Source of the DNA: Leptogorgia sarmentosa
Taxonomy: Eukaryota
Length of the DNA stretch: 64,000 nt
Assembly: GCA_964658305.1 (NCBI GenBank)
Contig: OZ210885.1
Location: 11,718,001-11,782,000, forward strand
Direction of reading: 5' to 3'
The notes under the pieces were generated by a model. It did not search any database. It saw only the letters and a program-made list of their open reading frames with translations, and was not told the DNA's origin. The first letter of the stretch is position 1, and every line of letters begins with the position of its first letter. Both the position numbers and the translations under genes were made by a program. Shown piece after piece: positions 8,234 to 49,052 of this stretch.

Positions 8234-8682
8234 ATTATACACCAATTGTCAAAGTTTCCCTTTTCTTGTGTTTCATTGGTGGAGAGCGTATCATGTGAGA
8301 GTGACGAAATTAGACTGTCTCCCTCGCATCAGCAAGAGAGGGAGATAATACGTTATTCACCGGTGAACAACAACAAAAAAACACGTGCGCCATCACGTGA
8401 AGACGCGACCTTTGGACGACCTGCTAATGCTTTAATTTAATTTAACATTTTAAGAATAAAAAATTTCGTGCATTTTTGTTCGCTTGTTCCGCTTTATTTT
8501 GTCGTTTCTTTGACGATTGGTATATAATAAAGCACTTATTGACTGGGCCCTCGGGAAACCAGTGTGTTTTGTGGACCCTCGACCATCGATGTTTCCCTCG
8601 GCTTCGCCTCGGGAAACATCGACGGTCTCGGGTCCACAAAACACACTGTTTCCCTTGGGCCCAGTCAATAAGTGTTTAATAT
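8234..8682 (-). mobile_element. GA-hairpin element A (putative non-autonomous Crypton-like)
   Basis: IR 8234-8254 / 8508-8528, ATTGG near the end, hairpin ~8527-8680 with apex ggc-ttc-gcc at 8603-8605. Confidence 0.7.
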
Positions 8683-9698
8683 ACTGCCCCAACTTAAAAG
8701 GCAACAAATTTGTTTCAGCTACTGAATGATATCAAACATTTTGTTAACTTCGAACGTTTTAGCATCTTCAGTTTCAATAAAAATTATTTGAATTTAACGT
8801 TAGCCACGGCCCTGAAGAAACCTCTTCCCAGGGCCCCCGGCCAGGTTGGGCCCCTTGTAGTTACCCCCCCCCCCCCCTTGTTACCCCGCAGATTAGCTAC
8901 ATCGCTGCTTACTAACAAATTTGGCTTCACATTTTAATACAAGAACGTTTATGAAGCAGATTGATGCATATCGTTTCAATTCATGGGTTTCACGTAACGT
9001 TCCATATTTGAGTGGGAGTCAACTCTAAATAGCGACGCAGTCATCACAGTGAGTTAAATATTCACTGTATGTATTCAACTTGTGCTTCGTAGCGAATATG
9101 TGAAATTCAGAAGCATTTCCTCAGTTTCGTGCAGCATAATCGTTAATACATTTTAGATTGACTCCCACTCAATTTCTTACGAAAAGTACTCTTTCTCTCC
9201 AACACCATATTAATTTAGGTCGAATTCGTCCTATGACTATAATTGGCTGCCGTATCTCTGGTTTTACGCACCCAACAACGACAAAAATTGTTATTATATG
9301 TGCAAATAACACGAAATATGCAAAATAAAAAGAACATAACACAGGTTTCATGACTATGTGGCTTCAAGGAGAAATAAGGACATATGGAATTCAACATATT
9401 GAACTCTGTTTTTCTCACTGATAGATGCTAATATGCCTTACGTTTCCGACGATCAATCTTTATTTTTTGTGTGTGTTGTGTTTTAACTACCATGTAACCC
9501 ACCGTTCGAAAGATCAGTTTATTATGATTTCAATGGTGTTTGTCTTTATTTCGTGCGGTATATACTCAGTGAAAAAAAGATTTATAAAAATTTGTATTTC
9601 AACTTTCGGAAACGTGTTGGAGAGAAAGAGAGCTCGTTTGTAATCCGTCGTACGTTTCAACCATTTTATCTAACTCGTACCTGTAACCTGTTGTACTG

Positions 9699-9941
9699 GG
9701 GCCGGTTGTACGAAAGGCGTTTAGCTTAAACGGTGGATAAGTTAAAAATATCGAACAAGTTAATAAATAAACTATAGACTATCAGGAAACTAAACTTTTC
9801 TGTCTTAACATGACCAGTATGCTTAGAACTACATATTTAGTTGATAAAATTCAGGTTCAATTATTTACAAAACGAATAGGAGTGTTTTTTAAATTTTGCT
9901 TATCCACCGTTTAAGCTAAACGCCTTTGATACAACCGGCCC
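9699..9941. mobile_element. PIF/Harbinger-group MITE (CWG TSD)
   Basis: CTG TSD at 9696-9698 and 9942-9944. ~43-bp TIR gggccggttgtacgaaaggcgtttagcttaaacggtggataag. Confidence 0.85.
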
Positions 9942-10586
9942 CTGTACAACAGGATACAACTTGTATATAATCGACTACATTTGAAAACAAAGTATATTTT
10001 CATTATTTTGAAGCGAAGCCCACTGGCATACATGGCCCTTGCTTCACGGTTCTAACTTTCACGATCTGTAACCAAGTTTTACCAACAGTACCACTGGTAT
10101 GGATGCCCTGTACAAAGCATACAATATTTGACCACAATGTGGCTATGGTGGAGGGTTGGTTTATGAAATTTACAAACGGCATCGTGTCGTGTGATTGGAC
10201 AATGTTCACTAATTCTTTTTGTGCTTGATGCCAGGAACAGCAGTTTTACAACGTAGCTGTAGTAAAATGATTTCCGGGGAAAACCAGTTACGTCTGTTTG
10301 AGTGGCACCTCTCAACCTTCGCCAAACTGAGTACAAATTATTCATATTCAAACAATAATTGCAACAGCTGGTTTGAGGATTCCAGCGACTGCGTATCTTC
10401 AAACCAACGGTTAACTGTAAACGTCGTGTAGAGCGCAGTGAAACGCAGTGTAAAAACATAAGTCAGCAACAGCCAGAGCATGTTCAGCGCCGGAGAGGGA
10501 CACAATTAAAAACAAGATTTCAAAAAATCGTCTAGGGTTAGACATCATTGAACATCAGTCTGACGAGTATCCATCATGCGTTGTAG

Positions 10587-45402: not shown

Positions 45403-45993
45403 TCTGAAAGTGTTAAAGTATTTATTTGTGATGATTAAATAGAACTTGTCGTGCTTCCCGAGACAATCCACAAATACTTCATGTTCTGAAAACATATTTG
45501 GTTATTAAAGCGATATGTTGCTGAATGCGTTCATTTCTAGTTAATGTTATGCATAATTTTTTACCTCTCCCGTCGGTGAGGGGAAGCGCGTCAGGTAATT
45601 TGTTCGTAATGGCAAAATAATAATTCTGTATAACGTAGCCTTTCGATAACACGGCTAACAATCCAAAATCAGCTCGCAAGTGATGGCAACATTGATTCGC
45701 GTAACATGGCGTACTCGCGAGTAACGAGTCAAGCGAGTACTCGAACGACTCGCGAGTGTATGTTACTCGAGGACGGTACTGTATAATGCTGCTAATCCAA
45801 ATTAAAATACGTGTCGTCTCACGTTGTACCGAAAATAGCCTCGGAAAAAAAGATCATTGGGTATGATCAAAATCTTTCGTTCGTAACAGCCACTGTAAAC
45901 ATAAAATATAGCTATCAATCCAAAAGTGATCACAAAAATTGCCTCGCGTAACATTGCCTTAACAGATTTGAAAATTTTAAATCACACTTTTAG

Positions 45994-46301
45994 GTCGTGG
46001 TTCTTTGGTGATTGAGAACTTCTTAACTGGAAAGGTTCTCCACAGATTTCCAATTCAAAATGCTGAATGGATCAGAGCGTTGGCATTAGCGCCTGGAGGT
46101 GAATCACTTTTGTCGTGCTCGGATATTTATGATAAGAAGACGCTGAAACTGTGGAACCTACCAAATGGAGAGTGTGTTGAAGAGTTTCATTTCGACCGGA
46201 ATGTTTTAGCCATTGCATGTGGCTCAAATGGAATGGTTTGTGTTGGCCTGGCAGGAGGTCGGGTCTGCTTCCTTCGTCTTAATAAGTTATCCTCGCATTA
46301 A
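45994..46301 (+). CDS. WD40-repeat protein, terminal exon
   Basis: cttttag|gt. Encodes ALALAPGGESLLSCSD..KTLKLWN..VCVGLAGGRVCFLRLNKLSSH*. Confidence 0.9.
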
Positions 46302-48598
46302 AAAAAACTCCAACCAAAAGGTTGAAGACTTAAGAGAAATTGCAACATTGTCTGAAATGAATATTAAACGTGGAAACAAGGATATGTGGGGTAACAATAT
46401 CAATATTTCTTGCAATGAAAAATACTATAATTATAAAGTAGAATAAAGACTCAAAAAACCAAAACCATTGAAATTAACGCATTGTTGGAATTTGAAAGCC
46501 CTTCCAATTTGAACTCGAAAAAATGCGTAAAAAGTGATTAAGAAATTGAGATATATTTGTAATGTGCGTCCGGATTGATTAAAATCAAATTTTGAATACA
46601 CTAAAATACTGGCTTGCAAAATTGGCTTAGCATAGAACCCGTTTACACGGTACTGGTTTCACGTAGTCACAATGATTTCGTCGCGTTTAAGGTTATTTTC
46701 ACTCTTACTACTTTTTCTATGATTAGTTCTTAATAAAATATTAAATTCTGTAATGTTACCATAGATTTAATTAAGAGCCACACTCGTCTTGAAACAATTA
46801 AATTTGATGTCGTGACCAAGCTGATCCGCTGCCGTGTAAACGGGATCTTAGGGATTAGCTTAGTGCTTGGGCATTCAAATTCAAACAATGCGCTAATTTC
46901 AAAGGTTTTGGGGCTTTTGGGGCCACCCTGTAGACTAATATTCTACTATGACTATTTTTACCAAAACAACCACCATTCCAGGTAGTTCGGGAATCTCAAA
47001 AGTAGAGACATTGAAAAATGTTTGAATGTTGCAGTGAAATTATTACGTAATAGGCAGAATGTGTACAATACAAGGACGATTATACATTCCCAAACTTGGG
47101 GTGTGGGTTTTCAATTTTTTGGAGATGAAAACATTTCTGCATCCTTACAAGTACGTTCCTACAAGTACTCCAGGAAGGGTTATCGGTACGTTTGTTGGAC
47201 CCAACAAAAGGACCCAACTTCTCACGAGGCGTCACCATGGTCGACGCCAAATTGGAATAAATTGTGAATATTTAAAACCTCTAGATTGCCGGAAACGACC
47301 ATGTCATGTTAACTGTACCTCTTTGATAAGGTCATTTAGGTGTACGAATCAAAGATCGCTTACATTAAGTATTATATTGCTGTATAACTTTTATAATTAC
47401 TATAATTGTCACAAGTAAAAGAAAACGAGAAATGGTAAACAGTGGGGGCAGTTATATAGTCGTCCCCGAGCCAAAAATTCGGGGACCCCACAAGATTGAC
47501 TACCTTTATAGAGTATTTGACACACGCGATTAGCTCATGTGCAAAAAATTGGAACCGTTTATACGAAAATAGGCTGACTTCGTCTTTTCATTGACTTAAT
47601 TCGACTGTTTGGTCTGCATGGTTAACTTTCAAACCTCGGTCTTCATGTCTTGACATTGGCCTCGGTTTAATATTTACCGTGCACACCACATGCCAAGTCA
47701 GTAAGTACTTGATGGAAATTATACTTGTGTGATGGAAATTTTTGAAAGTCATTAATTTGATACTTCAATATTTAATACATTTTACTTCTACTTCATTCAT
47801 TATTCAATATCCCTACTATCAGTATTTAAAAAATACTTGTGCAGAAGTAGAAATGCATGGGATGGAAGGAAAAGTATTTTAGTGGCACTCTGCGTGTTTT
47901 GAATTCACCTGTCTTACTACAAACATTCTTATTCAGTCCATGCATGAAGTAAATAATTATTGAGAAAACGTCACGCTAAGAATTTTCTCTTAATTCTCAA
48001 CGACGGTGTAGTAAACGTATAAGATAAATAAAATAGTTTGCCACTGAAATTTTCCGTCTCACCTCGATCTCTCGCTCCCGCAGGAATTAGCTGTGTGGTT
48101 CTGCTACGGAATAAATTAAACAGTGAAAATTTTATCTGCAAATGTCTAGCAATTCGCTTAGTTAATATAAGAGGCAACTGTAGATTTGAAAATTATTTTG
48201 TTTTAGCTTTAGTGTAAATTTTTAGTTGTATTTGCTGGTTTACAACTATAGAATTATTATAGGATATTTGTCAATAAAGGTAAAATTACCAATGATGTTT
48301 GCAATGGTCGTCACATTTACAGCATTATCAGCAAACCTTACTAAACTTCAGACGTCATTATCTCTTAGTTGTATTTTCTAAAATCTTTTCATTTCAGCAG
48401 TGTTTTACAGATACAACATTGGACCATCGATCCTTATAAGTTTGTTTGCAGACTAGGGGATTCTTCATTTGGGAAAAGTTATCTCTGTTGACAAGAAAAT
48501 ATTTCGAGTGTCTAATGACTCAGTTCTGCTCTTATTGAGCACGTTATAACGTCACCACGCTTATCGAGTAAATTGTTTTCAGCCGTGAAAGGCTGTTA

Positions 48599-49052
48599 CA
48601 TAATAACTACAGTGAAACACGTAATTTGATTGGTCAAAAGTGCTGCAAAAGATCAGACAATCCTGCACAGTATCCTGCTTGGGAAATTCTGAATGCTTAC
48701 GCACGAGCATAATGCTCACGAGTCACGGAATTTTTAAAATGTCGGCAAGATATTAAAATAAAATACGATAATTTGACAGTAACACAAATTGCGATCGAAA
48801 ACAACAAAATAAGTTTTCGTATTTATGGAAAAGAAATTGATGTTTTCCGTTGTTTCACTGTAGTTATTTTATAAAACAATTACCAAATAATTTTCCCGTG
48901 CAGGATAGCGTTATCCATACACTTGGGATGTGGCTTGAGTTTCGGAAAGTGACTCGCCTGCGGCTCGTGATTTTTTACGCTTTCCGAAAGTCGCCACATC
49001 CCACGTGCATGGATGACGCAATCCTGCACAGAAAACCATTCGGTATTCTTTA
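48599..49052 (-). mobile_element. GA-hairpin element F (degenerate)
   Basis: IR aataactacagtgaaac / gtttcactgtagttatt, gattggtc, hairpin ~48871-49051 with apex gcc-tgc-ggc flanked by TC/TC. Confidence 0.65.

Follow-up and report, generated by a model that had tools for sequence, protein, structure and literature searches.

In a 64,000-nt stretch of DNA from Leptogorgia sarmentosa (GCA_964658305.1, contig OZ210885.1, positions 11,718,001 to 11,782,000, forward strand; hereafter the window), we found that six short gene-less elements, A to F, each end in a long palindrome. Our data support a non-random and strand-polarised code in these palindromes. One strand, which we call the GA strand, has a c(GNA)g apical loop and tandem GA/GA mismatches in the stem; the same mismatches read TC/TC on the other strand, the TC strand. 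The elements are mobile, lack terminal inverted repeats (TIRs) and very probably belong to CryptonA, a group with a DUF3504 tyrosine recombinase (YR). On balance, we favour a mechanism in which the folded GA strand of these gene-less CryptonA derivatives pairs both ends on an internal site, and the recombinase cuts and joins that strand.

The hairpin code in the window and in other DNA

The gene-less elements measure 446-761 nt and their terminal palindromes 140-190 nt. Element A, a non-autonomous copy at 8232..8679 (+), begins with the left end TTATTATA; its palindrome covers ~8533-8677, with the apex at 8602-8606 and an internal complement of the ends (see below) at ~8508-8535 (+). Element E, at 21018..21481 (+) with the left end TTGTTATATAG, has its palindrome at 21337-21477, its apex at 21405-21409 and its internal complement at ~21312-21336 (+). 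Elements B (10819..11326, +; palindrome 11134-11326, apex 11228-11232, internal complement 11122-11135) and C (17061..17513, +; palindrome 17349-17510, apex 17428-17432, internal complement ~17337-17350) were, like E, refined at their ends from empty sites. Element D (19398..20158, -; palindrome ~19398-19550, apex 19474-19478) stands in reverse orientation, with the plus strand as its GA strand. The decayed element F (48596..49056, +, right end approximate; palindrome ~48881-49045, apex 48958-48962) has a 24-nt left-end repeat, the complement of which lies at 48851-48874.

A previous sequence-only reading had reported these six palindromes with cGNAg apices, and both their places and their apices hold. 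The loop on the GA strand is GAA in A, C, D and E, GTA in B and GCA in F, in all cases closed by a C-G pair. Moreover, a GA/GA pair had been placed 3-4 bp below every apex, and it is present in all six, with 3 bp of stem between (4 bp in D). This motif (GA, stem, cGNAg, stem, GA) occurs six times in the window; in 200 approximate dinucleotide shuffles of the window it averaged 0.04 occurrences and never exceeded 1. For the mismatches along the arms, the reading had counted three in A, C, D and E and four in B, and had called F degenerate. We obtained four clean TC/TC mismatches in B and three in E, and in F the apical GA/GA alone is intact. However, A, C and D have only two clean mismatches each, plus an imperfect one: a TC/TT in A (GA/AA on the other strand), one within a 3x2 loop in C and one next to a bulge in the alignment in D. 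Paired mismatches are spaced by ~17-31 bp, as had been proposed. The ordinary inverted repeats of the window (11 pairs with 57 mismatch runs, six of them 2x2) contained neither GA/GA nor TC/TC.

The unusual stability which the reading had ascribed to c(GNA)g loops and to tandem sheared G.A pairs agrees with the literature, where cGNA loop chemistry (PMC3201870; PMC13037366) and CGAG blocks with tandem sheared G:A (PMC10085684) are treated in the parts concerned. Using DNA energies in ViennaRNA, we found the GA strand favoured in 6/6 palindromes, by a margin of only 1.4-4.6 kcal/mol of 52-85, so that both strands are predicted to fold.

It had also been claimed that only A and E are related in sequence. 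This holds among A to F by BLAST, but C has a second copy, C', at 29215..29574 (+). C' is 94% like C, 5'-truncated and partly deleted in its hairpin, where the right arm is gone next to the apex. Furthermore, the window holds a seventh coded family, G, with a T-shaped apex of two mini-hairpins above a GA/GA, all on one strand. Element G (18722..20383, -, far end approximate; empty-site joint 18713->20401 in 4/4 runs) lies in the centre of a 91-bp-TIR element and contains element D; its branched hairpin at 18722-18787 has a GA/GA and a cGTTAg loop. A partial second copy, G' (3013..3292, -; 77% over 281 nt), has cGAAg and cGTCAg loops on one strand of its hairpin at 3013-3075. Family G had no match in the five assemblies described next.

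A pattern scan found the same hairpins in low-coding, animal-like contigs of assemblies labelled as prokaryotic (G001-G005). The exact apex pattern matched 76 times in G002 and 122 times in G001, the reversed pattern 0 times and once, respectively, and the free stem pair was complementary in 74/76 matches. Seventy hairpins, oriented by the apex loop alone, formed 39 k-mer clusters, some of which split one family. Among the outer two-base loops of the cluster representatives, 24/50 were GA/GA and none was TC/TC, and 14 more kept one G.A; the expected share of GA/GA is 0.6%. Apical counts are biased by the search patterns, whereas these outer-loop counts are not. The apex loops of the 39 clusters were GAA (24), GCA (9), GTA (2), GGA (1) and GNNA (3), and GNA and GNNA are the two mini-hairpin classes described in PMC13037366. 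At 49 of 57 GA/GA sites one strand reads CTCG in both arms, which is the CGAG block described in PMC10085684. In 12 A/E-type copies, 23/62 pairs had changed on both sides (as high in 0/500 shuffles), and the apical G.A positions were kept in 11 of them. The code also makes it possible to detect abundant repeats that lack genes, and to sort them, with no need of homology (198 exact apex matches in G001 and G002).

Several observations accompany these counts. G001 (many contigs), G002 and G003 contain long low-coding, animal-like stretches with DUF3504 transposons despite their prokaryotic label, likely as host contamination; the coding share is 0-0.38 at hairpin loci versus 0.69-0.98 at motif-only bacterial loci. 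At L305, L277:8082-8226 and L285:5539-5636 the apex has the opposite polarity to the outer arms or to sister elements, which is likely due to inversion of the inner palindrome after insertion. Branched or decayed apices at L275, L276, L279, L286 and L288 were passed over by the strict detector; the YR elements at L275:12100-12300, L276:7900-8050 and L288:3920-4070 have branched or CGAG-repeat apices, including one exact GCGAAGC mini-hairpin. In viral contigs the short apex pattern gave 122 loci, mostly motif-only chance matches, with two distinct coded hairpins, and by eye no YR was seen in the frames of these loci. The contigs L022 and L056 of the viral collection, with 30% GC, carry coded hairpins, two of them inverted and 2 kb apart, and are likely host DNA. 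Longer A-type patterns had 0 matches in genome and viral contigs. A YR search gave 0 matches in viral contigs and two in genome contigs, one of which is L287.

A DUF3504 tyrosine recombinase as probable partner enzyme

A check of long copies with the same ends for a Crypton/DUF3504 tyrosine recombinase or an HUH enzyme had been proposed, and we found the former. PF12012 matched 34, 5, 2, 0 and 0 times in G001 to G005. In a motif-free search, a long palindrome was found within ~800 nt of 15/34 YR loci, compared with 20/268 control windows (p 4e-4), and of 11/13 YR loci with a long open reading frame (ORF; at least 280 aa; p 8e-6); two of the 15 lack the coded apex. The full layout surrounds an ORF on the TC strand at L287, L280 and L427, and an ORF on the GA strand at L283, L282 and L278. 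Full YR elements are ~1.7-2.3 kb long, and at L287, L280, L283, L282 and L278 the YR is the sole ORF, with matches in Pfam to DUF3504, Phage_integrase and QRICH1 only.

The enclosed ORFs have the R-H-x-x-R-H-Y residues, and R-H-R-Y is intact in the alignment in L287, L280, L278 and others. In a second alignment the R, K, H, R, H and Y columns were invariant, with a K for the second R in L283. The predicted YR structure (predicted local distance difference test score, pLDDT, 69.6) matches the folds of QRICH1 and Cre, and the closest named proteins are those of Porites, Oculina and Nematostella. A kinship with integron integrases was considered and dropped: IntI4 was the best-scoring catalytic YR, but over ~70 residues only and level with XerA.

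Palindrome A is 78-83% like copies in G002, among them the YR element L427, which has A/E-type ends, a frameshifted YR and a palindrome 78% like A over 166 nt. A gene-less derivative of L427 of ~330 nt, L298, has arisen by deletion. Among 42 metagenome YR loci, 20 contain one of three YR-linked palindromes, either whole or with an internal deletion. Several of these 20 are re-assemblies of one locus, and the flanks diverge just after the palindrome.

In a tree of the YRs (35 rows; L378 and L372 left out), the palindrome lies 3' of the ORF in one clade (7 loci) and 5' of it in the other (9 loci, with one apex deleted, one possibly nested copy and reversed polarity in L277 and L285). Relative to the code the ORF can lie on either strand, which argues for DNA and against RNA as the folded molecule. 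RNA mini-hairpins are, moreover, described as much weaker (PMC13037366), and a role of RNA folding was ruled out on these two grounds.

Element ends, the internal site and possible routes of movement

Empty-site joints were drawn from contigs of 4 of 12 runs at 88% likeness, with sides of 24-41 nt. Joints were found for B (10817->11326, 4/4 runs, 1 nt common to block and target), C (17058->17512, 3/4 runs, 2 nt, TA, common) and E (21016->21481, 4/4 runs, 1 nt common); for A there was none among the 15 of 232 joints listed. The summed depth over B, C, D and E was roughly 10x the local floor. B, C and E are all inserted after TA in AT-rich DNA, the next base being A, C and A, respectively, and the element ends have only TTA/TAA in common. 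A duplication of at least 2 nt is not a possible reading for B and E, and no true target site duplication (TSD) was seen in these three elements, C alone allowing a TA duplication. The earlier view that these are not ordinary DDE-type MITEs (miniature inverted-repeat transposable elements) is in agreement with the lack of TIRs and the target overlap of 1-2 nt in B, C and E. B shows an imperfect ATTAT/AATAT overlap and YR families 2/3 show TTATT/ATTAT, which is not a fixed repeat; such an overlap repeat was likewise undetected in CryptonA in the section of PMC3212892 concerned. At L287:4235-4650, L422:6640-7060 and L358:3225, one coded element has inserted directly at the right end of another, with TATTGTT-like letters in common, which suggests that the target is chosen by likeness to the end junction.

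All six elements have the same order of parts: left end, interior, the complements of first the left and then the right end, apex and right end. The left end is complementary to the bases that directly precede the palindrome, and the right end to the palindrome's left arm. As the two complements adjoin, the internal site is the complement of the right end joined to the left end. This complement of an end-to-end junction, which the earlier reading had not noted, is the strongest hint at the way in which a single strand would be used. The left-end repeat is present in 6/6 elements, and 0-2.5% of random windows score equally high; among 33 cluster representatives it was found up to 700 nt upstream in 11 and downstream in none. 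A GATTGG/CATTGG word, often followed by TCACGTG-like letters, lies 20-60 nt inside the left end of A to F, near the ORF-start side; we take it, as a guess, to be a CCAAT-type promoter.

From these features we infer a folded single-strand intermediate. The GA strand would fold once a replication fork or a cruciform exposes it, aided by nucleation at the mini-hairpin and by stacked sheared G.A pairs, and the internal site would splint both ends side by side. One strand exchange could then release a closed single-strand dumbbell and leave the other strand of the donor intact (copy-out). The junction duplex might act as an attP-like site and attack an AT-rich target by a further single strand exchange, with replication resolving the product in the way described for CTX attP and integron attC. 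More tentatively, animal CryptonA in both deep YR clades may be single-strand copy-out YR transposons with a self-splinted dumbbell, the strand being set by the G.A/mini-hairpin code. Oligonucleotides would allow a direct in vitro test, given that the ends are defined and that a strand code, a candidate splint and intact enzymes are at hand.

A number of results weigh against this proposal. The idea that the hairpin is selected to fold on one strand fits the strand polarity, but strong folding is predicted for both strands. The apex polarity is reversed in L277, L285 and L305, arm-to-arm conversion gives compensatory changes in any palindrome, so that covariation is no proof of selection, although such conversion should also remove mismatches, as has happened in L422a and L305; GA/AA variants are explicable as plain CpG decay. 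As for the enzyme, 19/34 YR loci have no palindrome at the threshold (mostly decayed loci, but L281 has a long frame), the palindrome of L368 lies on the opposite side from the rest of its clade, and no YR or HUH family was found by Pfam in the 150 longest of the 325 frames of the window. A direct sequence link to a YR element is available for A/E only; B matches gene-less relatives, C, D and F have no BLAST match in the fetched loci, and these four are tied to YR elements by their common layout. The empty site of C also fits a TA duplication, and the joints may come from paralogous repeats or paralogous empty sites. Among the 11 upstream left-end repeats one (L277) is spurious, a reversed-probe control gave 2/33, and 22/33 clusters have no such repeat within 700 nt. 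No circle junction was seen.

The published Crypton model (PMC13565253; PMC3212892, as far as these sources describe it) has CryptonA excised as a double-stranded circle. In that case the palindrome would serve as a duplex binding array or form a transient cruciform. Its mismatches would be CTCG words in direct repeat, or interruptions that guard it against deletion. The CTCG words in both arms at 49/57 sites are in favour of this model, as are the internal palindrome deletions in many copies and the arm words (9-16 nt, 6/6) that recur near the left end like accessory binding sites. However, arm sequences are unrelated between families and the internal complement of the joined ends would have no role. 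Moreover, any mismatch would interrupt a palindrome, yet the outer loops are GA/GA in 24 cases and TC/TC in none, and this polarity goes together with a stable loop specific to DNA; we consider the duplex circle rather unlikely. It is still less probable that a single strand exists in which the hairpin is a protection or priming signal (resistance to nuclease or single-strand-binding protein, SSB, or second-strand origin), the recombinase acting later on duplex. Single-stranded DNA (ssDNA) replicons have terminal hairpins, which the branched apices of G, L275b and L276 recall, and mini-hairpins are described as nuclease-resistant, poorly bound by SSB and present at priming sites of phage ssDNA (PMC13037366). 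The first release of the strand would then be unexplained, the elements encoding only a YR.

A DIRS-like route, with an RNA copy reverse-transcribed in trans and a cDNA that closes on the internal complementary region (ICR) before YR integration, is very improbable. The internal site does follow the logic of the DIRS ICR as described in PMC8969392, and in one YR clade the cDNA of a sense RNA would be the GA strand; but the ORF of the other clade is on the GA strand, full elements hold one YR ORF only, and, with the CCAAT-like words located within the element, its end would likely be absent from transcripts. We give hardly any credence to a derivation of A to F from Helitron2/Helentron (HUH) elements or DDE MITEs that lie near YR genes by chance, and for A/E such an origin is unlikely. 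In its favour are the asymmetric terminal repeats, the hairpins and the lack of a TSD in Helitron2 (PMC8969392), the fit of C to a TA duplication, and the missing direct YR link of C, D and F. The same ends, however, enclose YR ORFs in many unrelated families, and B and E, which have no TIRs, insert before A and not T, with a target overlap of no more than 1 nt.

Setting in the window and relation to known systems

The animal DNA of the window is intron-like. WD40 exons that belong to a long host gene are scattered over 7365-46298 (+), with A to E between them. Other features are an element of 8.4 kb (33400-41806) that has 107-bp TIRs and contains DUF6589 frames and pieces of a RecQ-like helicase, a 564-bp-TIR insert inside it (35280-36848), a reverse transcriptase (RT) frame (3771-5387) and a piggyBac-type transposase frame (PF13843; 54212-55951). 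To judge from translations, the minus strand may hold several tRNA-like sequences at ~50160-53310.

Our elements resemble CryptonA in the single DUF3504 YR ORF, the lack of TIRs and of a clear TSD, and animal hosts including cnidarians (PMC3212892). The sizes match as well: autonomous CryptonA elements are 1248-2289 bp and derivatives 353-554 bp (PMC3212892, Additional file 1), compared with ~1.7-2.3 kb and 446-761 nt here. They differ in the left-end repeat, the internal junction complement and the coded terminal palindrome. In the parts of Kojima & Jurka 2011 that concern ends (PMC3212892), animal Cryptons have no terminal repeats, and all eight CryptonA rows read 'n.d.'; for the fungal Glomhoppers, the corresponding part of PMC13465315 gives no repeats either. 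Eulor5/6 have been linked to non-autonomous CryptonA derivatives (PMC5753468), and a 2026 review, in the section concerned, describes the Crypton mechanism as undemonstrated and a duplex circle as assumed (PMC13565253). We found no description of the code in Cryptons in the literature searched, mostly judged from listings; Repbase/Dfam entries, subscription papers (Goodwin 2003) and Fig. 1c of PMC5753468, outside the reach of this search, may already show these palindromes.

Helitron2/Helentron and ATon elements share asymmetric repeats plus a hairpin, no TSD and a single-strand logic with ours (PMC8969392; PMC3422177), but in the same sources they have an HUH enzyme and short hairpins, and insert before T (Helitron2) or in AT with TIRs (ATon). 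The partner found here is a YR instead of an HUH enzyme, no search aimed at HUH having been made on the related loci. DIRS1 has a YR, no TSD and an internal region whose sequence is complementary to the first part of the left end and to the last part of the right end (PMC8969392). Our elements differ from it in having neither RT/RNase H (the enclosed ORFs match only YR families in Pfam) nor long inverted terminal repeats, and their internal region abuts the right end as one palindrome.

Transposition through a folded single strand is known from bacteria. Integron attC sites use extrahelical bases; they have an unpaired spacer, not tandem GA mismatches, and are bacterial. As would be the case here, a tyrosine recombinase uses one folded strand of ~150 nt in attC and CTX attP(+), and the choice of strand lies in the imperfections of the palindrome (PMC4246890; PMC6393395). 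CTX attP(+), likewise bacterial, depends on the host XerCD (PMC4246890). If the proposed mechanism is true, the elements described here would represent the first recombination system of a eukaryote that works on folded ssDNA and would give sheared G.A DNA a natural role, the ancestor of the ZMYM/QRICH1/KCTD1 domains would have been a reader of structured DNA, and animals would provide a compact, sequence-flexible single-strand recombinase system. Compared with attC and attP, the site would be built from three segments and would belong to a eukaryotic transposon.

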